Part shown: one piece after another, positions 1,871 to 33,949 of the stretch
Numbering within the stretch: the first letter of the stretch is position 1
Layout: each line of letters begins with the position of its first letter
Assembly (NCBI GenBank): GCA_041665345.1
Contig: JBAYJA010000003.1
Coordinates: 1 to 39,201 of the forward strand
Direction: 5' to 3'
Source of the DNA: Patescibacteria group bacterium
GTDB lineage: Bacteria > Patescibacteriota > Patescibacteriia > PEXW01
DNA length: 39,201 nt
Notes under the pieces: generated by a model
Databases searched by the model: none
Told to the model about the DNA's origin: nothing
Seen by the model: the letters and a program-made list of their open reading frames with translations, nothing else
Program-made: the position numbers and the translations under genes

Positions 1871-1886
1871 ACTTGGATCCCACCCT

Positions 1887-1906
1887 CCCCAATTCGTAAT
1901 TCGTAA
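1887..1906 (+). promoter_or_regulatory. ATTCGTA direct heptamer repeats (2-3 units), candidate operator upstream of galU
   Basis: AATTCGTAATTCGTAATCC about 55-70 nt upstream of the galU ATG; the same heptamer is repeated 5x at 15205-15258. Confidence 0.35.
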
Positions 1907-5537: not shown

Positions 5538-5894
5538 ATGAAACTCAACCGCAAACTTTTGGCAGGCGCCATCTCCGTCGGCGTCCTCGCCCTTCCCTTC
5601 GCTGCTTCAGCTATAACGATTGAAAACGTCGGTGGCACGCTGACCCTCGGTTCCGCTGATTTGAAGCAGACTGTCCTGAACATTATTACCTTTGTCTTGG
5701 GCCTCCTCGGGCTCATCGCCGTCATCATGATTCTCTACGGCGGCTTCATCTGGCTCACGGCCGGTGGCAACGAAGACAAAGTGTCTTCTGCAAAACGGAT
5801 TATCTCCTCAGCCATCGTTGGCTTGGTAGTCATCCTGATCTCCTGGGCAATCGTGAACTTCGTCGTGAAGAGCACGGTCAACGTTACCGCCTAG
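5538..5894 (+). CDS. TrbC/VirB2-like (T4SS-type) pilin-like protein, paralog 3
   Basis: 118 aa. Signal peptide; LLGLIAVIMILYGGFIWLTAGGNEDKVSSAKRIISSAIVGLVVILISW is clearly paralogous to 5095..5427. SD AAGGGGGTG precedes the ATG. Confidence 0.65.
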   Translation: MKLNRKLLAGAISVGVLALPFAASAITIENVGGTLTLGSADLKQTVLNIITFVLGLLGLIAVIMILYGGFIWLTAGGNEDKVSSAKRIISSAIVGLVVILISWAIVNFVVKSTVNVTA

Positions 5895-5923
5895 TAATCA
5901 ACATTCGTGAACAAACAAACCAG

Positions 5924-5950
5924 CCGTTCCACACCCGTGGGACGGTTTTG
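5924..5950 (+). terminator. rho-independent terminator after the pilin-like gene triplet
   Basis: Stem CCGTTCC(5924-5930)/GGGACGG(5939-5945) with one G-U pair, 8-nt loop, TTTT 5946-5949. Confidence 0.45.
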
Positions 5951-6030
5951 GGATAAAGGAAAAAATAGGGTTTTGGTGTAGCGGCGAGTGGAGTTCATGG
6001 GTGGGGGTGGGGAAGTGTTTTATTAGTCAG

Positions 6031-6114
6031 CCATACCCTCTACCCATACCTTCCTACTATACTCGCTGCCACACCCAAACCTTCTACCTCTCCAATACGG
6101 TATACTACCCGCAT
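6031..6114 (+). promoter_or_regulatory. conserved C-rich upstream element, copy A (shared promoter/leader module abutting an ATG with no SD)
   Basis: ...CCTCTACCCATACC...ATACTCGCTGCCACACCCAAACCTTCTACCTCTCCAATACGGTATACTACCCGCAT|ATG. Near-identical element in inverted orientation at 14943-15035 and a shorter copy at 31035-31097. Contains TATACT (-10-like) 8 nt before the ATG. Confidence 0.6.
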
Positions 6115-8019: not shown

Positions 8020-9680
8020 GCCGGGGGCAGCACTTCGTACACCTTCGCGCTCGGCGTATCGTGGATCAATTTGAGGTAGGACTTACCCTCTGGGCTAAAT
8101 GGTTCAAACTGTTCTTTTTCTAATTCGGTCCAGAAAAAGTATCGAATTCCTTCTTGCCGAAGAAATGCCTCAGGATTTCCTTCTGGGGTTGTAAAAGTTT
8201 CATACACACCCTTCTGCTTTTCAAAATACCCAAGTGTTTGGTGCCCATGCGCAAAGTATGTGGGCAGCAGAGTTCGTCCACTGAGAATGTACGACGTCGT
8301 TGATACGGAAAGGGTAATGCCAGGCGGCTGCGTCTTCAGCCAATCCATGGTTTCCAGGGTGGTTTTTGGTTGCATGTAGAGCGACCATTCCCCGGGTGTG
8401 TATACATACGAACGACTTATATCCCGCGCCATGAGGTAAAGCGGCGAGTAGCACAGCAAGAGAATGGCAAGCCATACTGTACCCGAACGCCACACAATTT
8501 TCAGTGGACTGTTCTGTGTGCGCGCAATAATTTGCTCCCATAGAAAAACGAGCGCGAAACTTGCCAAAATTGCAAAAACGATATGGAGACCATTGGTAAA
8601 CCGGCGCTGGATTTGCACAGGCACGTAGAGGAGGAACGCGTGCATGGGTGCCCAGGCGAGCAGAAAGAGCATGGGCAAAGAGCGGGGTAACCGAACAACC
8701 CGTAGCCAACCCCAAACCGCAAAAACCAGGAGGAAGCCATAGCCAATGCAGTAGTTCCAAATGGGTGGCGAAGTGGTGATATTTTGCTTTGCCCAACCAC
8801 CTAAAGCTGGCTCTATCTGGTAAACGGCAATGAAGTACGCGCCAATCCCTGCGGTAACAAGCCCCATGATTGCCAAACGGACAATGGAACGTTTGGCTTT
8901 GGCAATGGAAAATGCTCGATCATAGAGAATGCGAACAAACGGCAAAATAATCAAGACGCAAAAAATGACTGGTAAGTCATACGGGTGGAGAATTCCCAGG
9001 AGTGCCGTGAGGCCAGCAAAAATGAAGTGTGGCACCGTGCCTGGACTTTGCTCATCCCGCACGGCGAAGAGGAAAGTGAGTAAGAGCAGTATTTGAGATA
9101 TGATGAACAGGGGTGAGTGCAGGAGCGTGGTAAAAGTAAAGGCTTCCGAAACCCACATATCCACAGGATTCTTTGTGAGCAATTCTTGCAAACTCGTGAG
9201 GTGCAAAAAGGGAGAAACGTACCCACCCAGCCCCATACCAAAAGCTAAAGCAACAAAAGCAATCCGACGTTGCAGGGATTTCTCAATGAACAAGAGTAAG
9301 GCTTTATACGCAATCCATAGAAAAATACCCGCTAGAAAAATTTTCACGAGGTGAAAAAGTATTGCATTGGGTAGGTGAAAAACACCTGCCAGGAAACCCA
9401 AAATTGCCCAAAGTGGTTGGAAAAAAGCATACCTTTGCGCCTCAGGTGTAAAAACGTTCGTAAAGAACACATGCCCCGTGGTTCGCGCCTGCTCCATCAT
9501 GGAAAAGTAGACGTTCGTGTCCGAGGGAGCCAAAGTGCTGAAACCCATGAAGACATCTCCCTTCCGTAGCCAAAGAGCACCGAGCACAAGCGGCAAGACG
9601 CCTAGGATAATTGCAGCCGTTGCTATCCAAAAAGCAAATGGACGCTCAGCTTTTGGAATCGAGGGGAGAATAGGGTGCAT
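8016..9680 (-). CDS. large polytopic membrane protein, GT-C-fold-like (paralog of 11058..12716)
   Basis: 554 aa, >10 TM helices, C-terminal soluble domain. Strong paralogy to 11058..12716, e.g. FSMMEQARTTGHVFFTNVF..FFQPLWAILG vs LSYIEQARTSGHVFFANVF..FFQPLWAVIG, and C-terminal IRYFFWTELEKEQF vs IRYLFWTEQEKQFF. Confidence 0.6.
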   Translation of the reverse strand: MHPILPSIPKAERPFAFWIATAAIILGVLPLVLGALWLRKGDVFMGFSTLAPSDTNVYFSMMEQARTTGHVFFTNVFTPEAQRYAFFQPLWAILGFLAGVFHLPNAILFHLVKIFLAGIFLWIAYKALLLFIEKSLQRRIAFVALAFGMGLGGYVSPFLHLTSLQELLTKNPVDMWVSEAFTFTTLLHSPLFIISQILLLLTFLFAVRDEQSPGTVPHFIFAGLTALLGILHPYDLPVIFCVLIILPFVRILYDRAFSIAKAKRSIVRLAIMGLVTAGIGAYFIAVYQIEPALGGWAKQNITTSPPIWNYCIGYGFLLVFAVWGWLRVVRLPRSLPMLFLLAWAPMHAFLLYVPVQIQRRFTNGLHIVFAILASFALVFLWEQIIARTQNSPLKIVWRSGTVWLAILLLCYSPLYLMARDISRSYVYTPGEWSLYMQPKTTLETMDWLKTQPPGITLSVSTTSYILSGRTLLPTYFAHGHQTLGYFEKQKGVYETFTTPEGNPEAFLRQEGIRYFFWTELEKEQFEPFSPEGKSYLKLIHDTPSAKVYEVLPPA

Positions 9681-9684
9681 GGGC

Positions 9685-10941
9685 TTAGTACACTGTATAA
9701 ATCATAATGAACCAGCCAACAGTCAGAGCGAATACTGCTCGGTATGCATGTTTCGTCTTCATGAACGGGGTGAGCACAAGCGGCCACGTGAGATACCAAG
9801 GCTGTACCCACTGCAAAGCAAAGCAGATAACGGCGCAGAAAACGTAGAATGCGGCTACGGGTAACTCTAGCCGCCCCTTCCACACCAACCACGTGAGCCA
9901 GCCAATGCACACAATCGCAATGCTCGTCCCAATGACGACAGCGAGCTGCAGCGCTGCATGCAACGGCATATCAGGCTGCACAGTGCGAATAATACCCAAA
10001 AATAGTTTTTGTGGGAAAAAAATCGGATTGACATAAAATTGTCGCCCCATAACCAGGAGACCTTCAAACATCCTTGGTCCAACCCATAGGAGCGCATACA
10101 TCAAAACCAATGCCACGAGGGCAGACCCGCTTGCAAAGAGCAGCTCACGAAATTTCTTTTCACGCGCGTACACTGCAAGAAAGAGTGGACTTAGCACAAC
10201 GGAGATGTGCTTCGTGGCAATGCTTAAACCAAAACTAAGTCCGGAAAAAGCAGAGTTCCCAAATGGTATGAGCGCTAAGAGGATAAGCACGACGAACAGG
10301 CCGTCATTATGCGCATCGCCAATGAGCTCAATGATCAAAATGGGATTAAGGATGACTAGGAGTGCAAGCGTCCGAGGTCGCCATCGTCCTAACAAGGCTG
10401 CGACACTTGCAAACATTGCAACGCCCAGAAATTTGAAAATGAAGAACTGCGTTACTAGTCCAGCGTGCAGTTTTCCAATGAGCACAACAATGCCCATCCA
10501 AAGTGGGCCATATGGCGAAGGGTATGGGCGCCATTGATCCCATACACCGTGCCAAATTGGATTCCCGGGGCCTAAACTTGCTGGGCCTTGGAGGTACGGG
10601 CTGGCATGCTGACTAATTTCAGCATACGCCATGTAGTTGTAGACATCACTTGATTTGGTAAGAAAATTAAGGAAGTACGGAGCAACGGAGAGTGCGAGGA
10701 CGAGAATAACCTGCTGTATGGATGGCGTATACCCGTGCTGCATCCTGTACACTGCCAAAAGGTATGCGCCGACGAGTAGAAGGAGAAAAAAAGCATGCAG
10801 TCCCTCCTGAAGATTCACTGAAAAACCATACCAGATACCCGTCTGTTCAGCAGTAAGGGCAATGCCAGCATGCAAGGCGACGGCAAGAGCAAGCCCAGTG
10901 GGCGTGTATGGAAACAGCGATCCCTTCTTTTGCGTCACCAT
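9685..10941 (-). CDS. polytopic membrane protein, DUF2029/GT87-like (putative polyprenol-P-sugar-dependent glycosyltransferase)
   Basis: 418 aa, about 10 TM helices; first extracytoplasmic loop SDVYNYMAYAEI...GNPIW resembles the D..Y...A...NPY signature of the GT87/DUF2029 family. Confidence 0.45.
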   Translation of the reverse strand: MVTQKKGSLFPYTPTGLALAVALHAGIALTAEQTGIWYGFSVNLQEGLHAFFLLLLVGAYLLAVYRMQHGYTPSIQQVILVLALSVAPYFLNFLTKSSDVYNYMAYAEISQHASPYLQGPASLGPGNPIWHGVWDQWRPYPSPYGPLWMGIVVLIGKLHAGLVTQFFIFKFLGVAMFASVAALLGRWRPRTLALLVILNPILIIELIGDAHNDGLFVVLILLALIPFGNSAFSGLSFGLSIATKHISVVLSPLFLAVYAREKKFRELLFASGSALVALVLMYALLWVGPRMFEGLLVMGRQFYVNPIFFPQKLFLGIIRTVQPDMPLHAALQLAVVIGTSIAIVCIGWLTWLVWKGRLELPVAAFYVFCAVICFALQWVQPWYLTWPLVLTPFMKTKHAYRAVFALTVGWFIMIYTVY

Positions 10942-11057
10942 GGCGATTACAAATATGCAGGTGCAAAAAAATGTAGCAAATACATCATCGTATGATTATG
11001 CAGCTACGACAATGATACCACGCAAAGAATGTAGCGCCCAAAGGAGCGATCACGCCT

Positions 11058-12716
11058 TTACAGGGCATAAATTTCAGTTGTTTGATTTTGAAAAATGAGG
11101 TGCAACCATGGGTAGTCTTGCGGGGAAAATGCTGCAAAAAATTGCTTCTCCTGTTCAGTCCAAAAGAGGTACCGAATGTGGTTTTCCTGAAAAAAAGCTT
11201 TGGCCGTATTCGCGCTTCGGGATCCTGGAAAAGCTACACGTAGTGCTTGGAACTTCTCAGCGTGATTCGGCGTTTGACTTCCATCCGAAATATACGTGGA
11301 TCGCAAGGTTTGGCTCGACAGGACAAAGCTTGTGGTGTCTGCGCTGAGGGTCAGGCCGGGTGCTTGCTGGCGAAGCCAGTGCATAGCATCAAGTGTTGCT
11401 CGGTCAAACTGGTATACCTCCCGTAGTGTCCCTGGCACCGAACCACCCACGAGCGGCTCCACAACAGTAAACCAGGTTGAAGGACACAGCACCCCTGCAA
11501 ACACCATGCCGCCAGTGGTAAGCCACAACGCCAATGGCACGCGCTGCCGCTGTGCCCATTGCCACACTGGCTCCACCGCAAGCCCTACGACGACAGCCAG
11601 CACGATGCTCAGACCATTGAGAAAACGACTTTGTACTTGCGTGGGTGAGTAGCTGAGGACCAGTGCAATGGCCGGCCAAAGCAAAAAAATGGCTTTGGCT
11701 TTTTGAAAAATGTCCCGATGCTTCCACCCTTGCCAGAGCCATAGCGGAATGTACACGCCATAGCTTATGCACACCACAAGGAGTGATGGACTTGGGGTTA
11801 CATTTTGCTGCGCCCAACCCAGAATACTGTGGTCAAGAAGCAGGGCGCTCACAAAGTAAGCTAACGCTGCCGTAGCTGCTAAACAGAGCATCTCCAGCCG
11901 AACGATGCTCTGCTTCCAGCCGGATGTTCGATACACCGGTTCACGGAAGAACCGAAGCAGGCTAACACCACACACGCAGGCAATGAGAATGACGGCATCG
12001 TATGGATGGAGTAACGCAAGCAGCAACGTACCGGCAAAGAAAACTGACCGGGGGACTTGGCCAGGCGATTCTTCGTCGCGCATTGCGAGCGTTACTAAAA
12101 AAACGAGTAGAGCTAACGTGAGAATGAAAAGTGGTGAATGGGCGATGGACTGAAAGACAGTAAACTGCGGCATAGTAATATCCGCCGGCATAAGATTGGC
12201 ACCTGGTGAAAAAATTGTTGGGAGTTGCTGTACAAATGGCAAAAAATAGAGGCCTACTCCTGAGCCAAAAACGCCGAGCGTCGTTGCTACTATCCGACCC
12301 CGGACGGTTGGTAGAAGCAAACCCGTAAATCGGTAAATGGCGAGTACCAACAGTGGGATGGATGCCAGTCGTACGATGTGAAAGACAAGCGCTGGGGCAA
12401 GGTGGAATACCCATGAAAGAAGCCCAATGACCGCCCACAAAGGCTGGAAGAAGCTCTGCGTATGCGGCTCTGCCGCAAAAACGTTTGCAAAAAAGACGTG
12501 GCCGCTGGTTCGCGCCTGCTCAATGTACGAGAGGTAAATACCATTGTCATTGCGTGCGGTTTCACCAAAACCAATGAACACTTTCTCCGGTGGTAACCGG
12601 AGCACACCTACGAGCAATGGAATCCCGGCACAGAGGATTGCTACCAGGCTCAGCGCCCATAAAAACTGCCGCTCCCTTTTTGCAAACGGGGGAAAAAGGC
12701 GTTCCATACAATGCAA
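11058..12716 (-). CDS. large polytopic membrane protein, GT-C-fold-like (paralog of 8016..9680)
   Basis: 552 aa; same architecture and conserved blocks as 8016..9680 (see that entry). Confidence 0.6.
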   Translation of the reverse strand: MHCMERLFPPFAKRERQFLWALSLVAILCAGIPLLVGVLRLPPEKVFIGFGETARNDNGIYLSYIEQARTSGHVFFANVFAAEPHTQSFFQPLWAVIGLLSWVFHLAPALVFHIVRLASIPLLVLAIYRFTGLLLPTVRGRIVATTLGVFGSGVGLYFLPFVQQLPTIFSPGANLMPADITMPQFTVFQSIAHSPLFILTLALLVFLVTLAMRDEESPGQVPRSVFFAGTLLLALLHPYDAVILIACVCGVSLLRFFREPVYRTSGWKQSIVRLEMLCLAATAALAYFVSALLLDHSILGWAQQNVTPSPSLLVVCISYGVYIPLWLWQGWKHRDIFQKAKAIFLLWPAIALVLSYSPTQVQSRFLNGLSIVLAVVVGLAVEPVWQWAQRQRVPLALWLTTGGMVFAGVLCPSTWFTVVEPLVGGSVPGTLREVYQFDRATLDAMHWLRQQAPGLTLSADTTSFVLSSQTLRSTYISDGSQTPNHAEKFQALRVAFPGSRSANTAKAFFQENHIRYLFWTEQEKQFFAAFSPQDYPWLHLIFQNQTTEIYAL

Positions 12717-12731
12717 TGTGTGCTACGAAGC

Positions 12732-13343
12732 CTACCGCTTCTCCAGCAGCAACATGGTCCACGGGATGGGCTGCTTGCCCCGGCGAACAACGAATGATTG
12801 CCCAACGAATCGTCGGAAACCCCACGGGGTCCAGTGGTTGATGTGCCCGGGGGTGTTCCCCCACCCTTTGAGGTACGTTCCCCGTGCCATGTTCATCACT
12901 CGCCACAGCGGCTCATGGGGTACGCTGATGATCGCCCACTTCTTGGTGACTCTAGCGAGTTCAGCCAAGGCTTTTTCTGGCTGCTCCAGGTGCTCCAGTA
13001 CTTCCAGCGCAAAAACCAAATCCACTGAGGCGTCAGGCCGGTTGAGAGCAAAAATGGATTCCACGCTGCAGGTTGCGCTGGGTACCCGCGCTTGGGTTGC
13101 TGTCACCAATTCTGGGGTGATGTCCGATGCTTGCAAGTCAACGTCAGGCAAGAAATGCCGAATGTGCTCGGTGGAAAAGCCTTCACCGCAGCCGACCTCC
13201 AACACACTCTTTAGATCGTTTGGTAATAGTCCCTGCAAAGTTTTGAAAAACCCGCGGAGGAAGTGCCGCATGATTGGGTTCTTAGATTCGTACTTCCCGC
13301 GGAAATCATCCTCCGGCCGATTGATGGGTGGTTGGTATGGCAT
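12732..13343 (-). CDS. class I SAM-dependent methyltransferase
   Basis: Motif I VLEVGCGEGFST, acidic residue after beta-2 (ASDIT), motif IV-like LVFALEVLEHL; 203 aa. Confidence 0.8.
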   Translation of the reverse strand: MPYQPPINRPEDDFRGKYESKNPIMRHFLRGFFKTLQGLLPNDLKSVLEVGCGEGFSTEHIRHFLPDVDLQASDITPELVTATQARVPSATCSVESIFALNRPDASVDLVFALEVLEHLEQPEKALAELARVTKKWAIISVPHEPLWRVMNMARGTYLKGWGNTPGHINHWTPWGFRRFVGQSFVVRRGKQPIPWTMLLLEKR

Positions 13344-13352
13344 ATCCGTACC

Positions 13353-14942
13353 TTACTCTGGATTCTGCCAAGAGTAAATCCACACCTCAGCATCTTCGTA
13401 CGCCAGTTCCACACCCGGCGTCACGCGAACATTCTCGTACATCTCCCGATGATCTTTTTCCACAAAAATCCACTTCGTATTAAAGAGGTCAAAGGCTTCA
13501 GCCAGGTTGTCCTTTTTCTGGCCCAGGGTGGTCTGCGCCCAGGCCCAGTAGCGGGTGACATCTTGGCGGTAGAGGAAGGTTGGATCCAGACCGGCGATGT
13601 ACGCGTTTACCGTGTTGTAGTAGAACAGCACGGGAAAATCATCCCAGTCACTGTGGAAGACCACGTCGCCAGGTTTGGAATGCTCTGCCATCCAGGTGGC
13701 CGAGGCTTGAAAGTGAGTAGCATTTACTCCCGAAGAAAGGTTCTGCACATTGGTGCGCTGATCCCGCGCAACCACGTATGGCACGCTGACCACAATGTAC
13801 AGCGCGAGTAGCCCCACCACAATTTTTCGACGCTGCCACTGCTGCCACACGCTCTCCCAGATGTGTCGCCAATCGCTGGTTTTCAGCACATCACCCAGCG
13901 TCACTGCTGCAGCCAAAGCAATGAACGGCACGGCATACTCCACGTACCGCCTAGACTTTAAGGTGACAACGCTGAAGAGCAGTGCGAGGAGCACCAGGGT
14001 CCACCCTTTGGCCGTCGTTCGTCGCAGGTGCACAATGGCCAGCACCAGCGCCAGTAGGAACGGAATGATGACCACCACATTATTCCCAATGAACTCGGTG
14101 AAGCCGTACGGATACCACTCCCCGCCCACGCCAATGACATTTCGGTAGTTCACCACGCCAATTTGGATAACCTGCTCCCACAGAAAATGAAAAGTGTTTG
14201 GGAAAAAAGGGTTTGCCACCATGCCCACCCCGGCGCCAGCCAAAACGCAGCCAAAGACCTGCAGCGGTCGGTAGTGCAGAAATCCCTGCCAGGTCCACCA
14301 GGGTTTCCTCCCCGCTTCCGCTGCTTCCCGTGCCCAATGCCGTACCAGGTCAACGACTGCGTACGCAAGCAATGACAGCCCGGCTGCCGCAATGAGCACC
14401 AGAAAACCGCCGTAGAGCAAGACGAAGAACCACGCCAGAAAAAATGTCAGCCACCGCTTCCCCCGGAAGATGCACCACAGACCAATGAGGAGTGTGGCCA
14501 GAGACAAGCTGGGCGCTTTGGCCAAACTCATCCGAAAGGTGAACGGCGTTGCGGCCAATAGCACTGCTGCCCAAATCCAGGCGTGGCGTACCCCAAAACT
14601 GCGAACAAACCACACCGCAACTGTCAGTAAGAGCGATGCAAAAACTACGGTCGCCAGTTTGATACCAGCCAGTGGATCCATGAGCCGCACAAAGGGAACC
14701 AGCGCAACATGATACAACCAGTGCTGGTCAATGTAGTGCTCGCCCAGCGTGGTGAAGGGCAACCAGGGCAATTCTCGCACCGCACCCTGCTGGCTGGTCA
14801 GCACCGCGATCCGCGCATGGTAGAAGGAGTCAGGATCGGCAAAGACCGCGCTCCGTTGCATCAGGAAAAAAGCAACGAAGCTCACCACAAACGTACCTAG
14901 GAGCATGAGGAGCGTCGTGTGGCTCCGCCAGTGAATAGTCAT
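13353..14942 (-). CDS. polytopic membrane protein, ArnT/PMT-like GT-C glycosyltransferase candidate
   Basis: 530 aa from ATG 14942 (the ORF-track start 15122 includes the noncoding conserved element). First loop FADPDSFYHARIA resembles the PDE.RYAEI loop motif of ArnT/PMT_2-type GT-C enzymes. About 12 TM helices, C-terminal soluble domain. Confidence 0.5.
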   Translation of the reverse strand: MTIHWRSHTTLLMLLGTFVVSFVAFFLMQRSAVFADPDSFYHARIAVLTSQQGAVRELPWLPFTTLGEHYIDQHWLYHVALVPFVRLMDPLAGIKLATVVFASLLLTVAVWFVRSFGVRHAWIWAAVLLAATPFTFRMSLAKAPSLSLATLLIGLWCIFRGKRWLTFFLAWFFVLLYGGFLVLIAAAGLSLLAYAVVDLVRHWAREAAEAGRKPWWTWQGFLHYRPLQVFGCVLAGAGVGMVANPFFPNTFHFLWEQVIQIGVVNYRNVIGVGGEWYPYGFTEFIGNNVVVIIPFLLALVLAIVHLRRTTAKGWTLVLLALLFSVVTLKSRRYVEYAVPFIALAAAVTLGDVLKTSDWRHIWESVWQQWQRRKIVVGLLALYIVVSVPYVVARDQRTNVQNLSSGVNATHFQASATWMAEHSKPGDVVFHSDWDDFPVLFYYNTVNAYIAGLDPTFLYRQDVTRYWAWAQTTLGQKKDNLAEAFDLFNTKWIFVEKDHREMYENVRVTPGVELAYEDAEVWIYSWQNPE

Positions 14943-15035
14943 GTAGGAAGTATACCGTATTGGAGGGGTGGAGGGTTTGGGTGTGGCAGCGAGTATGGTT
15001 AGAGGGTGGCGGTTTAGGATGGGTAGAGGTACGAG
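14943..15035 (-). promoter_or_regulatory. conserved C-rich upstream element, copy B (inverted relative to copy A)
   Basis: Minus-strand reading: ...CCTCTACCCATCC...CCATACTCGCTGCCACACCCAAACCCTCCACCCCTCCAATACGGTATACTTCCTAC|ATG. About 85% identical to copy A over about 70 nt; abuts ATG 14942 with no SD. Confidence 0.6.
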
Positions 15036-15204
15036 TGAAATACAATACTCCTCCCCTCCTTTCGAAGGAGCCGTCTGCGGCGGGTGCGAGCGAGCACAGC
15101 ACCTTAGGTAGGGGGAGGTCACCCTTACCGAGAAAACAAAATCACGCAGAATAAAAGTCTGGAAAAAACAAAAACATATTCTACTTCCTTCTTCTCAATC
15201 CCCT

Positions 15205-15258
15205 CTCCATTCGTAATTCGTATATTCGTAGCATCTTTTCGTAATTCGTAACCGTATA
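15205..15258. repeat. five direct ATTCGTA(A/T/G) heptamer repeats
   Basis: CCATTCGTAATTCGTATATTCGTAGCATCTTTTCGTAATTCGTAACC; same heptamer as at 1887-1906. Lies between the PGI terminator and the element upstream of the membrane gene. Confidence 0.4.
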
Positions 15259-15261
15259 AGA

Positions 15262-15290
15262 AACCTCCCCACCAAGCATGGATGTGGGGA
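15262..15290 (-). terminator. hairpin terminator for the PGI/PMI gene (minus strand)
   Basis: Perfect 9-bp stem CCTCCCCAC(15262-15270)/GTGGGGAGG(15282-15290), 11-nt loop. On the minus strand it is followed by TTTCTTATAC, T-rich. Confidence 0.5.
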
Positions 15291-15321
15291 GGTATGCAAG
15301 ATCTGTATTTCGAAAATATAA

Positions 15322-16380
15322 TTACCCGAGCTTTTTCTTAAAGTAATGCACCCAGTTAATTGTGGCAGGGTTAATATGATTGCGCAAGCCCAAGGCCAAG
15401 GTCAACGCTCCACCAAATGCCACTGCCGCAACTGCTTGCGAAAACCGTGTCTGCCCCGGCACTCGGAAGCTGGCAACTTTCGCAGCGTTTTTCAGCACAA
15501 CCTCGCTCGTCAACCGGAAACGCTTCTGAATGCGAGGATGGTACAGCCCTGAAGTGAGGAAGAGAAACGTCGTTTTCCGGGTATTCACCTTGGGATTGGC
15601 CAGGCCTTCCATGAGGTGGTGATTCAATTCCGGAATGGCAAAGTAGGTAGCCAGAGCTTTAGCGGTTTCATTCAGTTGATTCGCCAGGACATGCGCCGAA
15701 CCAAGAGTGTGCTCTGCACCTATCACAAAGATTTGCCGGTTGAGCAACGTGGCGGTTAAGGTAGCCACAGGATTGCCTAGCTTCCGCAAATCAAGCTGCT
15801 TTGCATACCGTTCAAGGTCACGAATGGCTTGTTCAACTACGGGTAAAGGCAAAGTGATGAGCCCGGATTTGGAAAGCAGACCCAGCAAACCAAATATCCC
15901 ATACCCTAAGCCAAGCCTGGGTTGATCAGACGGGTTTTCTCTGGGGGTAAAGATGTACGCTGGGATATTCCCACGCTTTGCCGCGCGTCCCAACGCCCCG
16001 CCCGTGGCTTGAATTAGGATCTTCGCACCTCGCTGCTGGGCGACCTTCAGTGCGGCCAGGGTTTCTTCCGTCGTACCAGAGTAGCTGGAGAGGACAACCA
16101 ACGTCCGCTTCCCTACCCAAGCAGGCAAATGGTAATCATTCACAATCACAATTGGCACGCGCAAATACTCAGCGCAAGCTGTCTGCAGCATGTGCGCGCC
16201 CAAAGCGCTGCCACCCATGGCGGCAACCACAATCGCATCAACTTTTCCCTTCAATGAGGAGATTTTCAAGCGACGTACTTCTATCCACGCCTGCCTTGCT
16301 TGTGCGCCAAAACGCAGTACTGACCCATGGACATCCTGGGGATCGTACTGCTGCAGCAGTCGAGTGAAAGAGACTGGCAT
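15322..16380 (-). CDS. SIS-domain phosphoglucose/phosphomannose isomerase (bifunctional PGI/PMI-like)
   Basis: 352 aa; two SIS-like Rossmann segments (VVAAMGGSALGAHML and LVVLSSYSGTTEET), size and layout typical of archaeal/bacterial bifunctional PGI/PMI. Confidence 0.6.
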   Translation of the reverse strand: MPVSFTRLLQQYDPQDVHGSVLRFGAQARQAWIEVRRLKISSLKGKVDAIVVAAMGGSALGAHMLQTACAEYLRVPIVIVNDYHLPAWVGKRTLVVLSSYSGTTEETLAALKVAQQRGAKILIQATGGALGRAAKRGNIPAYIFTPRENPSDQPRLGLGYGIFGLLGLLSKSGLITLPLPVVEQAIRDLERYAKQLDLRKLGNPVATLTATLLNRQIFVIGAEHTLGSAHVLANQLNETAKALATYFAIPELNHHLMEGLANPKVNTRKTTFLFLTSGLYHPRIQKRFRLTSEVVLKNAAKVASFRVPGQTRFSQAVAAVAFGGALTLALGLRNHINPATINWVHYFKKKLG

Positions 16381-16422
16381 ATCCGTACCCTAGCGCGTGG
16401 CGGAGAAGCTGTAAAGTCGCGA

Positions 16423-16520
16423 AGGCCTTTTTCTGTCATCCTGAATCAGATGAAGGATCCCCAGACTATGGATAAACTTCGGAGATTCTTCGTTAGACTC
16501 AGAATGACAATGAGGAGGAG
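16423..16520. repeat. imperfect palindromic ~95-bp structured element, copy 2
   Basis: GGCCTTTTTCTGTCATCCTGAATCAGATGAAGGATCC...CTTCGTTAGACTCAGAATGACAATGAGGAGG. Left arm is about 85-90% identical to 1771-1804; outer stem TGTCATCCTGAATC/GACTCAGAATGACA (12/14 paired). Confidence 0.6.
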
Positions 16521-21842: not shown

Positions 21843-23098
21843 AACGCATCGCCCTCATCAACGTGCACTGCGATCCACTCGAAAGCCTTGGATCCGCAGA
21901 AGCCGGCGGTCAAAATGTCTACGTCCAGCACCTTGCTAAGGCACTTGGCAAACGCGGTTACTATGTGGATGTCTTTTCCCGGCTCAACTCTCGCTCCAAA
22001 AAGGAACGCGTCCGGGTTTCCAAGCACGTGCAATTCATCCGCCTCGTCGCTGGCCACCGGCAGTTCATCCCCAAGAATAAACTGGGGCCACTGCTGCCTG
22101 AATTCATTAGCAACTTCCTGGCCTGGCAGAAACGTGAGGGTGTGCGGTACGACCTGCTGCACTCACACTACTGGGAGGCGGGCTGGGTAACCATGCAGCT
22201 GAAGTACATACTCAAAGTCCCACAGGTCCACACCTTCCACAGCTTGGGCATCATGCGCTACAACGCGCTGAAAGGATTTCGGGAGCAGAGCCTGGATACC
22301 ACGGAAATGAAGAAGCGTATTGCCATTGAAAAAGAAATTACGGAAAAAGCTGAGTGCATTCTGAGCACTAGCCCGTACGAACGTGAGTACCTGGAGAAGC
22401 ACTATGCTGCAAAATCTGAGAACATTCGCGTTGTCCCTTGTGGCGTGGATTTGCAACGCTTCCGACCCATTGACCGAAATGAGGCACGAAAAAAAATTAA
22501 TGCGCCAAACGGCGACAACCTTATTCTCTACACTGGTCGCATTGAGTGGCGCAAGGGCATTGGCACCCTGGCCATTGGCGTCGCTAAACTCTTCAAGCAC
22601 CACCCAGAGCTGCGAGGAAAAACCTGGCTGTACATTGTCGGCGGCAACCTGGGCCGCCGGGCAGAGCCCGAAGTCCGGGAGGAAATCAAACGACTGAAAG
22701 ATGTGTGCCGAGAGTATGGGATACGTGATCGCACCGTATTTACCGGCGCCGTGCAGCAAGAAAAACTCCACTTCTACTACTCAGCGGCAAACGTCTGCGT
22801 CATCCCCTCCTACTACGAGCCTTTTGGCATGGTGCCGTTGGAAGCCATGGCCTGCAAAGTGCCGGTGATCGCCTCTGATACCGGTGGCCTGCCGTACACG
22901 GTTCGGAATATGAAGAGCGGGATTTTAGTCCCCGTTCGCAACCCGGGTGCCATCGCCCATCGCTTAGCCGACGTCCTGACCAAGCGCGAGCTGGCAGAGA
23001 AACTGGTGCGAGGAGGCCGGGAACTTGCAAAGACCACCTTTAGCTGGCGGCTGATTGCGAAGGGCGTCGCCGAGGTGTACGAACGGCTGGTGAAGTAA
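21839..23098 (+). CDS. GT4 glycosyltransferase, sucrose-phosphate-synthase-like (SPS/MshA-type GGQNVYV family)
   Basis: N-terminal MKRIALINVHCDPLESLGSAEAGGQNVYVQHLAKALGKRGYYVDVFSR (SPS/MshA-type signature); C-terminal GT-B E-x7-E region YEPFGMVPLEAMA; 419 aa, like minimal cyanobacterial SPS. Start overlaps the ruvC stop (ATGA). Confidence 0.7.
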   Translation: MKRIALINVHCDPLESLGSAEAGGQNVYVQHLAKALGKRGYYVDVFSRLNSRSKKERVRVSKHVQFIRLVAGHRQFIPKNKLGPLLPEFISNFLAWQKREGVRYDLLHSHYWEAGWVTMQLKYILKVPQVHTFHSLGIMRYNALKGFREQSLDTTEMKKRIAIEKEITEKAECILSTSPYEREYLEKHYAAKSENIRVVPCGVDLQRFRPIDRNEARKKINAPNGDNLILYTGRIEWRKGIGTLAIGVAKLFKHHPELRGKTWLYIVGGNLGRRAEPEVREEIKRLKDVCREYGIRDRTVFTGAVQQEKLHFYYSAANVCVIPSYYEPFGMVPLEAMACKVPVIASDTGGLPYTVRNMKSGILVPVRNPGAIAHRLADVLTKRELAEKLVRGGRELAKTTFSWRLIAKGVAEVYERLVK

Positions 23099-24691: not shown

Positions 24692-25585
24692 ATGCATATC
24701 GCCATGTTTGGGGGGACAGGATACGTTGGGAGTGCTTTGCGCGCACATTTGGCTAGCCAACGTATTCGAGTGAGTGTTTTTTCACCCCACTCCCCTAGCC
24801 CACTCTACCCTCTGGAAACCCACGTGGTTGCCGACCCATGGTCTGCCAGAATTGAACCCGGGGTATTTACGCATATCCTTGACTTCTACGGCGTATCTGG
24901 AGATGCGGCCTGTGCTCGGAATCCGCAGGAGGCAGCGTATAGAAACGTAGACTCGGTTCGTGCGCTCATGCATGCAGCGGCGGGTACAGGCATTGATAGA
25001 TTCGTCTATGTCTCTACTGCTTCAGTGTTTGATGATGGTGTCCAGAAAACGGGGAATGAATTTTTTGAAAACGATGTGCCTCGTCCTGCAACAGTGTACG
25101 GCGATACAAAGCGAATTGCGGAAAATCTACTCCTATCACAAGAAAAGGTACCCTGCACAATTATTCGCCATCCAACAATCTATGGCCTATCGCCGTGCAT
25201 GCGATGGGACACATTGATGCAATTTTGCGTTCAGCAAGCAAAAAAAGAGGGGGTGGTGCGCATGTTTGGGGATGGGAGTGCGTTTCGCCCCCTCGCCGCG
25301 TTGTCACACGTTGTTGCTGGATACGCACATGTGCTACATTCTCCCCCACCTTCACAGTCTTGCTTCCACATTGTTTCTGAGAATGAGCCAATTCGTAACT
25401 ACCTAGAGAGAATCCAGCAGGTTGCCAAGGAATGTGGGCAGCGTATTAGCGTGGAAACGGTAGAGCAGTCCTACGTCCCAAGCTATCGGGTGCACAGTTC
25501 TTTCCCCTATACCAACCGACCAGAGTATTCTTTCGAGCTCCTTCAAGCTATTTGGAAAGCGGCGGTCGGTCGCAATCACCTGTAG
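24692..25585 (+). CDS. NAD-dependent epimerase/dehydratase (SDR family)
   Basis: Start at ATG 24692 with SD AAGGAAGTGAGG. N-terminal GGTGYVGS Rossmann motif, catalytic YGDTK (YxxxK). The ORF-track 5' extension to 24362 overlaps the methyltransferase and is rejected. Confidence 0.8.
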   Translation: MHIAMFGGTGYVGSALRAHLASQRIRVSVFSPHSPSPLYPLETHVVADPWSARIEPGVFTHILDFYGVSGDAACARNPQEAAYRNVDSVRALMHAAAGTGIDRFVYVSTASVFDDGVQKTGNEFFENDVPRPATVYGDTKRIAENLLLSQEKVPCTIIRHPTIYGLSPCMRWDTLMQFCVQQAKKEGVVRMFGDGSAFRPLAALSHVVAGYAHVLHSPPPSQSCFHIVSENEPIRNYLERIQQVAKECGQRISVETVEQSYVPSYRVHSSFPYTNRPEYSFELLQAIWKAAVGRNHL

Positions 25586-25646
25586 CTGGCGCTTGATTGC
25601 CAAAGGCGTGGCCGAAGTGTACGAACGAATGGTGGAGAAAAAATAA
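25576..25646 (+). pseudogene. relic 3'-end fragment of an SPS-like GT4 gene (duplicate of 23034-23098)
   Basis: CACCTGTAGCTGGCGCTTGATTGCCAAAGGCGTGGCCGAAGTGTACGAACGAATGGTGGAG...TAA is about 80% identical to the last about 65 nt of the GT4 at 21839..23098 (..SWRLIAKGVAEVYERLVK*). It would encode SWRLIAKGVAEVYERMVEKK*. The epimerase stop TAG lies inside it. Confidence 0.6.
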
Positions 25647-26731: not shown

Positions 26732-26785
26732 GATATGGTGTAAGTAAGGTATACTACCAGTACTCTACCACTTACCTTTGCCCGT

Positions 26786-29885: not shown

Positions 29886-30922
29886 AGAAACCAAAGATAG
29901 CTATCCTCGCCTCCAACCTCTTCCCCATTCCGCCGCAGCGTACGGCCGCGGCTGAGCTTATTGTCTCCCAAATTACCGAAGGGCTTGTGAAACGTGGCTT
30001 TCCGGTGACGCTCTACGCTGCCGGTGATACCAAAACCAAAGCGCGCTTGGTTGCCGCCACCCCCCGCGCCTCCATCCGTGAGCCCAAGATTGGCATGGAA
30101 AACCACAAGGCCTACGAGCTCATCCAAACCAGCAATGCCTACCGAGATGCCACGCGCTGGGGCGCCAACGTCCTGCTCTCCCACGTGCCCATGATGAGCG
30201 CGCACTTCTCCCCGTTCGCCCCTTTTCCATCCACTGCGCTCCTGCACAGTCCGCCAACTTTCACGGACCAAGCGGTCATGCGAACCTACAGCAAGACGCA
30301 GAGCTACATTGCCATTTCCAAAGCGCAGCGCAACTTGGCGCCTGGCGCACGTTTCATTCAGACCATTCAGCACGGCGTGGATCTACACAAACTCCCCTTC
30401 CACCCCAAGCCCGGCACGTACCTGGCCTTCCTGGGTCGCATCCGCAACTACAAAGGCGTACATGAGGCTATTACCGTGGCGCATCGGCTCAACCTACCTT
30501 TACGCATTGCCGGCCCCATTGGCGACCCCGTGTACTTTGCCCAACAAGTGAAGCCCTACCTCAACAGCCGCATCCGGTACATTGGTGAAATTACCCACCG
30601 AGAGAAAGGCGCCTTCTTGGGCAATGCCCTGGCCACACTCTTCCCCATTTCGTGGGATGAACCCTTTGGCTTGGTGCTCATTGAATCATTGGCCGTGGGC
30701 ACACCCGTGGTGGCATTCAAGCGTGGCTCGGTCCCAGAAATTCTCAAGGATGGGAAAACTGGTTTCATTGTCAAAAATACTGCAGCCATGGCGCAAGCAG
30801 TCCGGCACATCGACGCAATTGACCGAGCGGTCTGCCGCAAAGACATGGAAAAACGTTTCAGCCTTGACCGCATGGTGGATGACTATGCTGCTTTACTTAC
30901 ACGTCTAGCCGCCGGTAAGTAG
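29882..30922 (+). CDS. GT4 glycosyltransferase (small), paralog c (more divergent)
   Basis: KIAILASNLFPIPPQRTAAAELIVSQITEGLVKRGFPVTLYA; WDEPFGLVLIESLAVGTPVVA; start overlaps the upstream stop (ATGA). Confidence 0.75.
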   Translation: MKKPKIAILASNLFPIPPQRTAAAELIVSQITEGLVKRGFPVTLYAAGDTKTKARLVAATPRASIREPKIGMENHKAYELIQTSNAYRDATRWGANVLLSHVPMMSAHFSPFAPFPSTALLHSPPTFTDQAVMRTYSKTQSYIAISKAQRNLAPGARFIQTIQHGVDLHKLPFHPKPGTYLAFLGRIRNYKGVHEAITVAHRLNLPLRIAGPIGDPVYFAQQVKPYLNSRIRYIGEITHREKGAFLGNALATLFPISWDEPFGLVLIESLAVGTPVVAFKRGSVPEILKDGKTGFIVKNTAAMAQAVRHIDAIDRAVCRKDMEKRFSLDRMVDDYAALLTRLAAGK

Positions 30923-31034
30923 AACAAGGAACTCGGAACCGAGAACAGAGAACCAGAATGGGAAAAAGCAGGAGTGAACCTCCCCTCTGGTTCCAAGTTC
31001 ATTGTTCTCAGTTCAAAGTTCCCTTCCAAAGTAG

Positions 31035-31097
31035 CCATCCAACCATACCTTTCAACGATACTCGCTGCCACAACCAAACCCTCACCCCTTTGCAACT
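31035..31097 (+). promoter_or_regulatory. conserved C-rich upstream element, copy C (core only)
   Basis: CCATCCAACCATACCTTTCAACGATACTCGCTGCCACAACCAAACCCTCACCCCTTTGCAACT|ATG. Shares the ATACTCGCTGCCACA(C/A)CCAAACC(C/T)TC(T/C/A)ACC core with copies A and B but lacks the CCAATACGGTATACT proximal module; no SD. Confidence 0.5.
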
Positions 31098-32030
31098 ATG
31101 CCTGTCCGCTCACCTGAACTTCGGCTTGACCCCATCCACGATCGGGCAGTGGTCATTGCGCCAAAGCGGAACATCCGTCCGCACGATATTCCAGACCCCT
31201 ACGTCCGAACGGTTCGGCCGCAGCAGTGCCCATTTTGCCCAGAAAGCATTAAGGGGAAACACCCCACAGCGCACCTTGGCCGGGGAAAAAATCTGATTCG
31301 CGCCATTGCCAATGACTACCCAGCCGTGAGTTTGAAGACTCCCAAAGCCTACGGCTACCAGGAAGTCATCATTGACACCCCGGATCATGACGCGGACTTG
31401 GGCGAGCTGAGCGTGACGCAGCTTGATCACTTACTGAGTTTCTACCAGCTACGAACAAAAGCAATTGCCCGGATTCCCAACATTGAGTACATTCTCATTT
31501 TCAAAAATCACGGAGGCAAATCCGGCGCCAGCTTGGTGCACGCCCACTCGCAGGTGTTTGCCACGGGCTTTGTGCCGCCGCACATTGTGCTCAAACTCCA
31601 GAACGTTCGGCAATACAAGCTGGAGCACGGCCACTGCTACTACTGCAAGCTTCTGGCTGATGAGAAGAAGGGTCCCCGCCGCATTCTCAGCAACAAGTAC
31701 GTTACGGCGTTCGCGCCCTACGCCTCAGCCTACCCGTACGAAGTCTGGCTCTTCCCCAACCGGCACCTGGATAACTGTACTCGCCTGAGCTTGGTGGAGC
31801 GTCGGGCGTTTGCCGCTGCACTCCAATCGATCCTCAAGAAGCTCAACCTCATCCGCGCGTCGTACAACTACTACCTCCACCAGACCCTTACTGACCAGGA
31901 CGAACACTTCTACCTGCGCATCGCCCCGCGCGAGCAAACCTGGGGCGGGGTAGAAGTCGGCTCCCGTCTGGTCATCAACGGCGTGGCCCCTGAGGACGCG
32001 GCGAAGTTTTTCCGGAAAGGAATCCGCTAG
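31098..32030 (+). CDS. GalT-branch HIT-superfamily nucleotidyltransferase (galactose-1-phosphate uridylyltransferase / NDP-sugar phosphorylase-like)
   Basis: Zn-knuckle CPFCPE near the N-terminus and active-site HxHxQ (LVHAHSQVFA), typical of GalT (HPHGQ) and ADP-glucose phosphorylase relatives; 310 aa. Confidence 0.7.
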   Translation: MPVRSPELRLDPIHDRAVVIAPKRNIRPHDIPDPYVRTVRPQQCPFCPESIKGKHPTAHLGRGKNLIRAIANDYPAVSLKTPKAYGYQEVIIDTPDHDADLGELSVTQLDHLLSFYQLRTKAIARIPNIEYILIFKNHGGKSGASLVHAHSQVFATGFVPPHIVLKLQNVRQYKLEHGHCYYCKLLADEKKGPRRILSNKYVTAFAPYASAYPYEVWLFPNRHLDNCTRLSLVERRAFAAALQSILKKLNLIRASYNYYLHQTLTDQDEHFYLRIAPREQTWGGVEVGSRLVINGVAPEDAAKFFRKGIR

Positions 32031-33949
32031 CTGTTCCAGACGATACGATACTCACCAAACGTGTGTACGTTTTTGTACTTGATATCGGGAGTTGGCGGGG
32101 CATCATCACGGAAAATCACGTAGTACCCTTGGGTCAAAAGGTCATTGAGAAATGCTGCGGTTTGTGATTGGAAAAGCCACGTCTCAAATGGCTGACGATA
32201 GCCAACGGGTGTGTACCCGCCAAAGTAGTACAGGTAAAAATCAATGTCGGGGACGGCAAAGTACACCTTGGTACTCATTTGCGTTACCGCTTGAATCGTT
32301 TGGAGGGTGTCAGCGTACGTCTTTGGGTCAGCAAAACTACTTGGCTGATGTATTTGCCCAGTGCGAAGACGCTGTACTTGCATGCCAAGAGTACTCACCA
32401 CCCTGTTTGAGTAAGAAACAAAGAACAGGCAAACGATAGTAGCCAGACCGGCGAGCGCAAACTTTCGGAATGAGTGACCCGCCCGCCCTGCTTTCAGCTG
32501 GTACATCAAATCTATGAAATAGAAGAGCCCAAAAAGAAAAATGGTCGAAATGCTAATGATGCTATTTTCGTGACTCCGACCAAAGAAGTACATTGAGTTA
32601 CCAATGGAGAACACAAGGAGAAAAACACCTAGGGTATACGCACGTGAACTGAAGCGGTGACGATATTTGAGCAGGAAGATCCAGGCAAGGCTGAGGCAAA
32701 TGATGACGAACCAATAGAATGACTGGCGTGAAATTGGCATAAAACCAATCCCATAGCGTGAAAAATTTGTTTCAGGCCCATCTTTCGGAACCCGGAGAGC
32801 AAAGAAGCTTATAGCGGTTCCCATTCCAATAATGGTTACGTTAACCCAGATTGAACGGATAAATGTACGTGCTGCAAAAAGTATTTTTTTGGGCGATCGA
32901 ATGATCCCCTGATCAACGACCTGAAGTGCAAAGAGAATGAAAGCCAGCTCAAAAAATGAAATGGCATAAATGAGGCCAAAATGTCTGTGGAGAAATACCA
33001 GGACGACTACGGTGAGGCCAAAAAGCCAATGACGTAGGCCCTTAAAGTACAAAATGATCAACAGTACAAACCACAAGTCCAAGCGCAAGGGGGTTGTCTG
33101 TAGCCACTGCACTGGATCAACCATTGAAGCGTACACGCGAATAATAATGTAAGAAAAAAAGAATCCATAGGCTAAACTCTTTTCTCGGAATACTTTTTTC
33201 CCAAAGATGAGCAGGCCAACTGCAAAGAAAAAGTAGGAGGCCTGCACTACCCAAGCAAAGGCATTGATATCCCAGTGGAATTGTAGCCAAATTGCAGGAA
33301 GGAATGACGAGAGAATATCGTACTGAAAGTAAATTTGTGACCAAGGAATGCTGTGCAAAATCTTCAAGGCTGGATGAAAAAAATAGGCGTAATCGTAAAA
33401 TGAAATTGGGGCGGTGGCAACAAAAAAGAGTGGCGCACTCGCAAGCACAACCAACCAGAAAAACCAACGCGCGCTAGCATATCGCCAAGCGGCAGCAGCA
33501 GCTCCAGCCACAAGGCTTAGGTGGAAGAGCAGCTGCCACGAGTATCGAAAATCGACATTGACGTTTGGCACGAGTGGATTGATTCGAAAAAGTGCAACGA
33601 ATGCAGCACAAAGAAGTAGCCATGCAGACCATGGGCGGCGCTGCCAACCCAGCCCACTGAAAAAACGCGTGTACAGGACGCCACACAAGAAAACAATCAA
33701 CCATACAAGGGCGTAAAGGACGAATGGCTCATAGCCATCATGCTGCGTCGAGCGAGTCCAGAGTTTCATCCAGAGCGTGACATCCGCTACCTGGGAGAGA
33801 TCATGGAACTGCCAGATGAACGGAGCAAAAGAAAAAAACACTTGGTGAGCACCGAAAACAATGAGCGTAGAGAGGACAAAATATTGTACAAATCGATTCT
33901 GCGGAACACGGGTGTATACATCCGTCAAAACTTCCTTCCAGGTTTTCAT
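32027..33949 (-). CDS. large polytopic membrane protein (640 aa) with C-terminal soluble domain; function unknown (GT-C-like architecture)
   Basis: About 14 hydrophobic helices and a ~150-aa soluble C-terminal domain. Markedly A/T-rich coding sequence relative to neighbours; convergent 4-nt overlap with the GalT-like gene. Confidence 0.55.
   Translation of the reverse strand: MKTWKEVLTDVYTRVPQNRFVQYFVLSTLIVFGAHQVFFSFAPFIWQFHDLSQVADVTLWMKLWTRSTQHDGYEPFVLYALVWLIVFLCGVLYTRFFSGLGWQRRPWSAWLLLCAAFVALFRINPLVPNVNVDFRYSWQLLFHLSLVAGAAAAAWRYASARWFFWLVVLASAPLFFVATAPISFYDYAYFFHPALKILHSIPWSQIYFQYDILSSFLPAIWLQFHWDINAFAWVVQASYFFFAVGLLIFGKKVFREKSLAYGFFFSYIIIRVYASMVDPVQWLQTTPLRLDLWFVLLIILYFKGLRHWLFGLTVVVLVFLHRHFGLIYAISFFELAFILFALQVVDQGIIRSPKKILFAARTFIRSIWVNVTIIGMGTAISFFALRVPKDGPETNFSRYGIGFMPISRQSFYWFVIICLSLAWIFLLKYRHRFSSRAYTLGVFLLVFSIGNSMYFFGRSHENSIISISTIFLFGLFYFIDLMYQLKAGRAGHSFRKFALAGLATIVCLFFVSYSNRVVSTLGMQVQRLRTGQIHQPSSFADPKTYADTLQTIQAVTQMSTKVYFAVPDIDFYLYYFGGYTPVGYRQPFETWLFQSQTAAFLNDLLTQGYYVIFRDDAPPTPDIKYKNVHTFGEYRIVWNS

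Follow-up and report, generated by a model that had tools for sequence, protein, structure and literature searches.

The window, meaning the whole 39,201-nt stretch of DNA analysed (contig JBAYJA010000003.1), is placed in the Candidate Phyla Radiation (CPR) by three T4SS-pilin genes and by its closest relatives, which are Kerfeldbacteria and Patescibacteria MAGs. Identical sequence was found in JGI 3300037810 and in Logan runs. Flanks of 8.3 kb and 9.5 kb on the same ENA contig (ERZ27249449, k141_524871; 176,635 bp) bring the analysed part of this genome to 57 kb. A GalT-like gene of 310 aa (31098–32030, + strand; Pfam PF01087, GalP_UDP_transf, 48 bits, with the NCBIfam GalT models scoring under cut-off) is the last of a row of genes, GT4-kinase-GT4-GT4-GalT. 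It is convergent, with a 4-nt overlap, with a 640-aa gene (32027–33949, − strand) that is specific to the lineage of the window and is absent from a related species represented by one contig (Logan SRR28495930_12487; L084 and L088). Directly before the GalT-like gene, as the earlier note had reported, lies copy C of an intergenic module. Copy A precedes the gene for a DUF2079 membrane protein, and copy B precedes a five-gene minus-strand operon encoding a 529-aa membrane protein, a methyltransferase, a 549-aa protein, an MptA/B-family GT-C transferase, and a 554-aa protein. The genes upstream of the copies encode a pilin, PGI, and a GT4. The DUF2079 and 529-aa proteins are not detectably related (BLASTP E=0.07), and the GalT-like protein is of a different Pfam family from the products of the A and B genes. 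Since the genes downstream of A and B are unrelated, gene duplication does not account for the copies.

All three module-bearing units end in convergent pairs with a 4-nt overlap (8016–8019; 32027–32030), leaving no room for a terminator between the genes. In the operon following copy B, the MptA-family and 549-aa genes (9685–12716) are 58–65 % identical at the amino acid level to those of L084 and of another relative, L060, against 83–95 % for their neighbours. L084 and L060 also have two extra genes in this block (a GT2 and a 299-aa methyltransferase); 9685–12716 is a replaced, hypervariable core of the glycosyltransferase block. Elsewhere, a 64-nt direct repeat (23035–23098 and 25577–25640; 83 % identical), which duplicates the 3′ end of a 419-aa GT4 gene, encloses a GT2-methyltransferase-epimerase cassette of 2.5 kb that neither L060 nor L088 has, and looks like a cassette-insertion footprint. 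Two other small repeats were noted. The sequence GGTACGGAT (13344–13358 and 16381–16395, − strand) lies directly before ATGCCA of the methyltransferase gene (12732–13343) and of the PGI gene (15322–16380), the copy at PGI being conserved in L084 and L060. Small palindromic repeats of the GTCAT(C/T)CTGA...GAAGGATC type (1765–1803, 16421–16459, and about 16490–16520; 39 nt, 79 % identical) are confined to two intergenic regions.

The core of copy C, ATACTCGCTGCCACAACCAAACCCTCACCCC, was located by exact pattern matching at 31058–31088 (+; 31 nt), 9 nt before the GalT-like ATG at 31098. It recurs at 6059–6089 (+) in copy A and at 14996–14966 (−) in copy B, with none expected by chance, and the third copy is therefore real. 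When up to three mismatches in the 31 nt were allowed, the other match in the window was that of copy B (0.00 expected, 100 shuffles), and the first 15 nt of the core, ATACTCGCTGCCACA, are exact at 6059 (+), 14996 (−), and 31058 (+). Copy C as a whole (31032–31092, +) consists of a Box1-like CCATCCAACCAT, the core, and a CCCTCACCCC tail, without a −10 box; its composition is 42 % C and 8 % G. That only the core module is retained here was correctly recognized before, as CCAATACGGTATACT is restricted to 6092–6106 (+) and 14963–14949 (−) and absent at C. In the profile search (nhmmer) copy C spans 31035–31092 (E=8e-9), and in local alignments 31035–31089 pairs with 6036–6091 of copy A and 31032–31089 with 15025–14964 of copy B; by blastn, A and C share 49 nt at 84 % and B and C 37 nt at 92 %. 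The extent first given for the copy, 31035–31097, agrees with these alignments except for its last 5–8 nt, which are ancestral sequence and not part of the element. Its distance from the other copies had been put at 30 kb; the actual distances are 25 kb to A and 16 kb to B.

Copy A (6029–6106, +; nhmmer E=3e-17) consists of Box1 (CCCTCTACCCAT), the core, CCAATACGG, and TATACT at 6101–6106, and is followed by the DUF2079 ATG at 6115. Copy B (14949–15029, −; nhmmer E=5e-19) has Box1, an extra CCTAAACCGCC segment, the core, the same sequence after the core as copy A, and TATACT at 14954–14949, followed by the ATG of the 529-aa membrane-protein gene at 14942. The two align locally over about 105–115 nt (A 6006–6109, B 15059–14946), with 62 nt at 87 % by blastn, and intrinsic terminators lie upstream of both. 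Besides copies A, B, and C, the profile search of the 57 kb of genome returned A′ (5966–6008, −; nhmmer E=0.02–0.05), an inverted and degenerate version of the core that stands head-to-head with A. The family is C-rich and G-poor (42–49 % C and 6–8 % G on the sense strand) and 60–110 bp in length; all full copies are intergenic, each pointing at the adjacent start codon.

Together, A′ and A form a long, imperfect hairpin (5958–6093) of about 40–45 bp, a palindrome of ~130 nt with arms of ~26 nt, which on the minus strand is followed by TATTTTTT. It is stable both in the window (z=−4.0) and in L084 (z=−5.6), with 45 consensus pairs and no compensatory changes between the two sequences compared. 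Taken by itself, the element has no structure in any of the A and B copies of the two species or in C (z from −0.8 to +0.8), the RNA of copy C giving −3.7 kcal/mol over 98 nt (z=+0.4). A riboswitch-like structured RNA is not indicated, as the element by itself has no stable fold and only the A′/A palindrome, which is without covariation, is stable; an Rfam 15 E-value scan of the whole window gave only one chance miRNA match, elsewhere. The core has no dyad symmetry of the kind usual in bacterial operators. At A, the core is also one arm of the conserved long hairpin, which a simple operator model does not explain. Antisense hairpins with T-runs occur both upstream of A (in the hairpin just described) and in the spacer of copy C (30986–30970, followed by GCTTTTTCCC); these may stop antisense read-through.

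In all four A and B copies of the window and L084 there is a ACGGTATACT box with C at −15, CCAAACC is separated from TATACT by exactly 19 nt, and GGTATACT lies 6–8 nt before the ATG. The end of TATACT is 6 nt from the ATG at B, L084 B, and L060 B, and 8 nt from it at A and L084 A. In relatives without the module the box reads TGnTAnACT (TTGGTATACTACCCGCATG in L060; TGCTACACT-N6-ATG in L086), and other leaderless-type genes (34184; L052 4428) have TGnTATACT-N6-ATG, with the TGn kept. A leaderless extended −10 was defined as TGnTAnnnT ending about 6–8 nt before the start codon and kept in orthologues; this pattern is conserved at A, at B, and in the module-free relatives, and is absent at C. The ACGGTATACT box fits a putative −10 for leaderless mRNA. 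The previous assignment of the proximal module as a −10 region finds support here, since the box is kept at this distance from the ATG in both species and also in relatives that have no core.

The module spans approximately −15 to −95, where the −35 hexamer of a sigma-70 promoter would normally be. It contains no TTGACA-like hexamer, the −35 position reading AACC(C/T)T, and a simple promoter scan for TTGACA-like and TATAAT-like hexamers 16–18 nt apart returned no promoter-like sites in 30850–31150, 5880–6160, or 14900–15330. Canonical sigma-70 promoters are present elsewhere (TTGACC-17-TATAGT before yebC; TAGACA-17-TAGAGT before a PBP gene), and many other genes here have strong GGAGG Shine-Dalgarno sites; the organism therefore also uses ordinary signals. 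A −10 without a −35, at a fixed spacing from the module, is the layout of a promoter dependent on a factor over the −35, and this is the basis of the mechanism preferred below.

L084, in which the DUF2079 and 529-aa proteins are 81 % and 93 % identical to those of the window, carries A′, A, and B at the same sites (A′ 144–106, A 172–260, B 10824–10738). Between the two species, identity amounts to 88 % in the intergenic region of A (215 nt) and to 82–87 % in the B module (84 nt), while four-fold degenerate sites in the flanking genes are only 36–57 % identical. Identity of 82–88 % in the module where silent sites are saturated indicates that A and B are under purifying selection. This evidence spans the whole of the A and B modules and not C. 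Stem positions in both arms of the pilin terminator, which lies upstream of A, are not the same in the window as in L084.

In a gene-by-gene comparison L084 and L060 are sisters, with the window branching outside them, therefore the module predates all three. L060 has lost the module at B, the upstream sequence being unrelated, but keeps its basal box. In the outgroup L086, DUF2079 (56 % identical) is preceded only by a terminator and gaTGCTACACTtgagccATG, both within a 92-nt spacer. As both module-free regions keep the basal box, the module appears to be an add-on to a pre-existing basal leaderless promoter. No copies outside the orthologous sites were found in about 1.1 Mb of relatives' DNA, nor any element at metagenome-contig relatives of the 529-aa gene (32–39 % identical). 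Exact scans with ATACTCGCTGCCACNNCCAAAC gave no matches in genome or metagenome contigs, in collections without the source species. Three matches in a viral scan came from one phage sequence with no flanking similarity and were dismissed as a chance match. The module family is, as far as these comparisons reach, lineage-restricted, selectively maintained, and positioned upstream of predicted promoters.

Copy C has a different history. It is part of a 170-nt insert (30923–31092, +) between the GT4c stop and the ancestral CAACTATG, made up of a hairpin and the 60-nt copy C, and this insert was found only in the species of the window. In L088, L089 (the L060 genome), and L091 (the Logan assembly of the L003 species) the GT4c stop and the GalT ATG are 5 nt apart (the L088 junction reads ...TTAGCAAAGTAACAACTATG). 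In more distant relatives (L004–L011 and L040; GalT 65–69 % identical) GT4 and GalT abut, except in L009, where the spacer is made of TTCGTAA repeats. The hairpin of the insert (30928–31022; 95 nt, imperfect) is unrelated in sequence to A or B and gave only self matches by blastn; the RNA of 30915–31110 folds at −44.8 kcal/mol (z=−2.1), and the minus strand has the terminator-like site at 30986–30970 mentioned above. A target-site duplication is not evident at the insert.

At copy C, the position of the −10 in the rest of the family, 19 nt after CCAAACC, is GCCTGT and falls inside the GalT coding sequence; the bases at −12 to −7 before the ATG are CCCTTT, and no sigma-70-like promoter was found in the spacer. 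The N-terminus of GalT is conserved in relatives, therefore a downstream start codon is unlikely. Lacking the −10 box, copy C cannot, by its sequence, be a promoter of the A/B type. It is the youngest member of the family, restricted to the species of the window. The earlier note had inferred from the retention of the core at C that the core is the functional unit; this does not follow, as C is the youngest copy, present in one species and without a −10, and the evidence of selection comes from A and B only. With no promoter at the family spacing, a DNA-site function at C is unsupported. At most, copy C may be a solo binding site or an unstructured leader for GalT that lacks a Shine-Dalgarno (SD) sequence, and it is possibly functionless.

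Other changes were observed around the same junction in relatives. A gap of 100 N in L003 (4142–4241, equal to L090 1401–1500; MAG CAZBMC010000044.1) destroys the GT4c gene call; that it might hide a repeat upstream of GalT was discounted, as L091 shows 41 nt of ordinary sequence. Nucleotide identity between L003 and L088 is 96 % in the GT4 operon and the 620-aa gene and drops to 89 % in GalT (L003 4242–5160), which in L003 is followed by an additional minus-strand gene of 124 aa. In this genus, the GalT locus seems to be a hotspot of recombination. The tandem TTCGTAA(T)TCGTA repeats, which in L009 occupy the GT4-GalT junction that copy C occupies in the window, are intergenic in several related genomes, usually just after a terminator (window 1883–1905 and 15200–15260; L060 4100–4146; L009 about 7616–7659 and 3966–4008; L005 6843–6885), and may be a second portable upstream module.

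Sequence has been exchanged between the copies within a genome. In the window, A, B, and C all read CGCTGCCAC, and A and B share the segment after the core that is missing from C. In L084, both copies read GCAATACGG and CCCTTCACC; L084 A reads CGCCGCTAC and L084 B reads C---GCCAC. Window B is nearer to L084 A (87 %) than to L084 B (82 %). The substitutions common to copies within a genome, together with this cross-resemblance, indicate that the copies swap sequence by gene conversion.

The closest published parallel is to putative mobile promoters (PMPs), a class of non-coding stretches that are homologous to one another but lie immediately before non-homologous genes of the same genome (Matus-Garcia et al., 2012; PMC3488235). 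PMP families are small, with a conserved core, variation near the start codon, and diverged partial copies; they are recognized by alignments of upstream regions that exceed 50 nt with at least 80 % identity, where the neighbouring coding sequences do not align (PMC3488235). Copies A, B, and C resemble them in all four of these family characters. The coding sequences upstream and downstream of the copies do not align. By length and identity the A–B pair falls within the PMP definition, whereas C is marginal or outside it, just under the length threshold, and is a diverged copy. PMP is, however, an operational class with no mechanism attached, and A and B are old, with purifying selection at orthologous sites, rather than just recent duplicates.

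Three further systems were compared. The first is the textbook E. coli model of class II activator sites and of extended −10 promoters that lack a −35. The modules resemble these in lying over the −35 with a good −10, no TTGACA-like −35, and a fixed spacing to the −10, but they have neither dyad symmetry nor a known activator, and the host is an uncultured CPR bacterium. ECF-sigma promoters combine a −35 'AAC' with a −10 'CGT' about 16–17 nt away. The arrangement ccAAAC-N17-CGGTAT, invariant in all four A and B copies, loosely resembles TGAAAC-N16-CGTA. However, there is an extra G in the −10 motif, C has no −10 half, and module-free relatives keep a plain extended −10; no ECF sigma gene is present in the 57 kb. 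Correia elements (CREE) are miniature palindromic elements of Neisseria, and copy A is like them in that its ~130-nt palindrome, placed between a terminator and the start of a gene, supplies sequence close to the promoter. It is unlike them in homology that continues past the inverted arms, in having no target-site duplication seen, in very low copy number, and in orthologous retention across species. These three resemblances are leads and do not establish membership of any of the classes.

Of the explanations considered, the one we prefer, tentatively and at a little below even chances, is that of a DNA module recognized by a protein, which was added in front of basal promoters and spread by copying among glycosylation genes, with C as a young, promoter-less copy of putative function. 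An element acting at the RNA level is a rather unlikely alternative. The element would then be an unstructured C-rich, G-poor leader, either a platform for SD-less translation initiation or a Rho-loading (rut-like) site, for which the criterion is ~80 nt of unstructured RNA with C far in excess of G in a genome with Rho. At C it would give GalT a ribosome-accessible leader after the insert broke translational coupling to GT4. The base composition and the failure of the element to fold alone are in keeping with this, as are the C-rich, G-poor regions upstream of other SD-less genes here (yidC and dnaN in L055), and co-transcription of GalT with GT4, if it occurs, would necessarily place copy C in the mRNA immediately ahead of an SD-less ATG. 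However, with TATACT downstream of the element and terminators upstream of it, the element is probably not in the mRNAs of A and B, and a function driven by composition requires neither exact identity over 15–23 nt nor a fixed spacing of 19 nt. The possibility of a coding sequence, with the element as an N-terminal extension, is still more readily discarded and can be given almost no credence. Gene callers do place the DUF2079 start at GTG 6001 (672 aa) and choose a start that gives the L084 orthologue 677 aa, and all three frames are open across the G-poor element. However, the element is not in the same frame with respect to the ATG in A as in B/C, indels that distinguish the window from L084 break the frame locally, the NCBI annotation has the 634-aa ATG start, and L086 and L060 lack the sequence entirely; a leader peptide was likewise rejected on the inconsistent frames.

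It is improbable that the copies are a selfish or neutral palindromic repeat of the MITE, REPIN, or Correia kind, spread by transposition or ectopic recombination, with A′ and A as the full copy, B and C as partial copies, and any promoter effect incidental. The outgroup L086 has no A′/A palindrome, its terminator and promoter lying side by side, copy C arrived within a discrete insert, and the copies show gene conversion, all of which such a repeat could explain. On the other hand, in the 57 kb an inverted pair is found at A only, and the homology of A, B, and C runs 8–30 nt past the inverted-repeat arm, therefore the arms are not the ends of the element. In addition, there is no evident target-site duplication at C, only 3–4 copies occur in 57 kb, all aimed at a start codon, and none occurs in the relatives' DNA outside the orthologous sites; the retention of A and B at the same sites despite saturated silent sites points to selection and not selfish turnover. 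Likewise, A (+) and B (−), as 78-nt inverted repeats with 81 % identity bracketing 6110–14945 and with both genes facing inward, might be recombination sites at which inversion switches upstream contexts, similar to Mycoplasma vsa/vpma, and their mosaic similarity and gene conversion do imply exchange between them. Nevertheless, this is very unlikely: each copy has its own −10 beside its own gene, so that inversion would not switch expression, the ENA, JGI, and Logan assemblies and the related species are colinear with no alternative junction seen, and there is no recombinase gene in the 57 kb.

A number of further candidates were set aside. Contig breaks do not fall in the element, occurring instead in the 3′ end of the third pilin gene (about 5849–5860) and by the TTCGTAA repeats (15254). 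By eye, the G-runs of an antisense G-quadruplex are not conserved in A, only CCACA of a DnaA box matches, and no GG/GC pair is correctly spaced for a sigma-54 −24/−12 promoter. The distal nATACT is not a conserved second −10, being TCCACT in L084 B and having no −35. The sub-motif CACCCAAACC is uninformative, with 12 matches (up to one mismatch) against 4.3 expected, mostly inside genes.

According to the preferred explanation, the module would be a DNA site bound by a protein, which might be an alternative sigma factor or else a regulator (activator or repressor) that overlaps the −35 region. It would have been added onto the pre-existing basal promoters of two convergent cell-envelope glycosylation units, one being the DUF2079 gene and the other the five-gene operon with the 529-aa gene and the MptA-type GT-C transferase. 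Selection, and gene conversion from one copy to another, would maintain the similarity of the copies. Copy C would be a later, partial copy of the module, inserted together with an unrelated hairpin where GT4 and GalT had been tightly joined.

No sigma or regulator gene linked to the copies was found in the 57 kb. The nearest candidate regulator, a TrmB-family wHTH gene 6.7 kb left of the window, is only a guess. A TrmB-family regulator is encoded at L052 1589–2434, and in the 54-nt divergent promoter region between an S6PP-like gene and the GT4 operon, TACTACCAGTA (26752–26762) matches the TrmB-type palindrome TACT-N3-AGTA; there are two such matches in the window where 0.12 would be expected. 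The element itself has no such palindrome. The promoter region of the GT4/kinase operon (26732–26785), for which the earlier note suggested putatively common control with the membrane glycosyltransferase block, contains no core.

A more specific and speculative version, which we consider doubtful, is that A, B, and C are operators of an undescribed CPR regulon. Its factor would read an asymmetric C-rich ...ACTCGCTGCCACACCCAAACC... 19 nt upstream of a weakened extended −10, co-ordinating leaderless genes for GT-C membrane glycosyltransferases. If this were true, the recent arrival of a solo site before GalT would show a regulon in the course of growing, and the supply of sugar nucleotides would be tied to surface glycosylation. 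Copy C itself is mainly of value as a correction, as it is the least informative member of the family and cannot define a functional core. To our knowledge, almost nothing is known of transcription control in the CPR/Patescibacteria, and no paper in the library searched combined Patescibacteria with leaderless promoters. A constrained non-coding module, at a fixed spacing from a leaderless-type −10 and before cell-surface glycosylation genes, would therefore offer a concrete experimental target in these bacteria.
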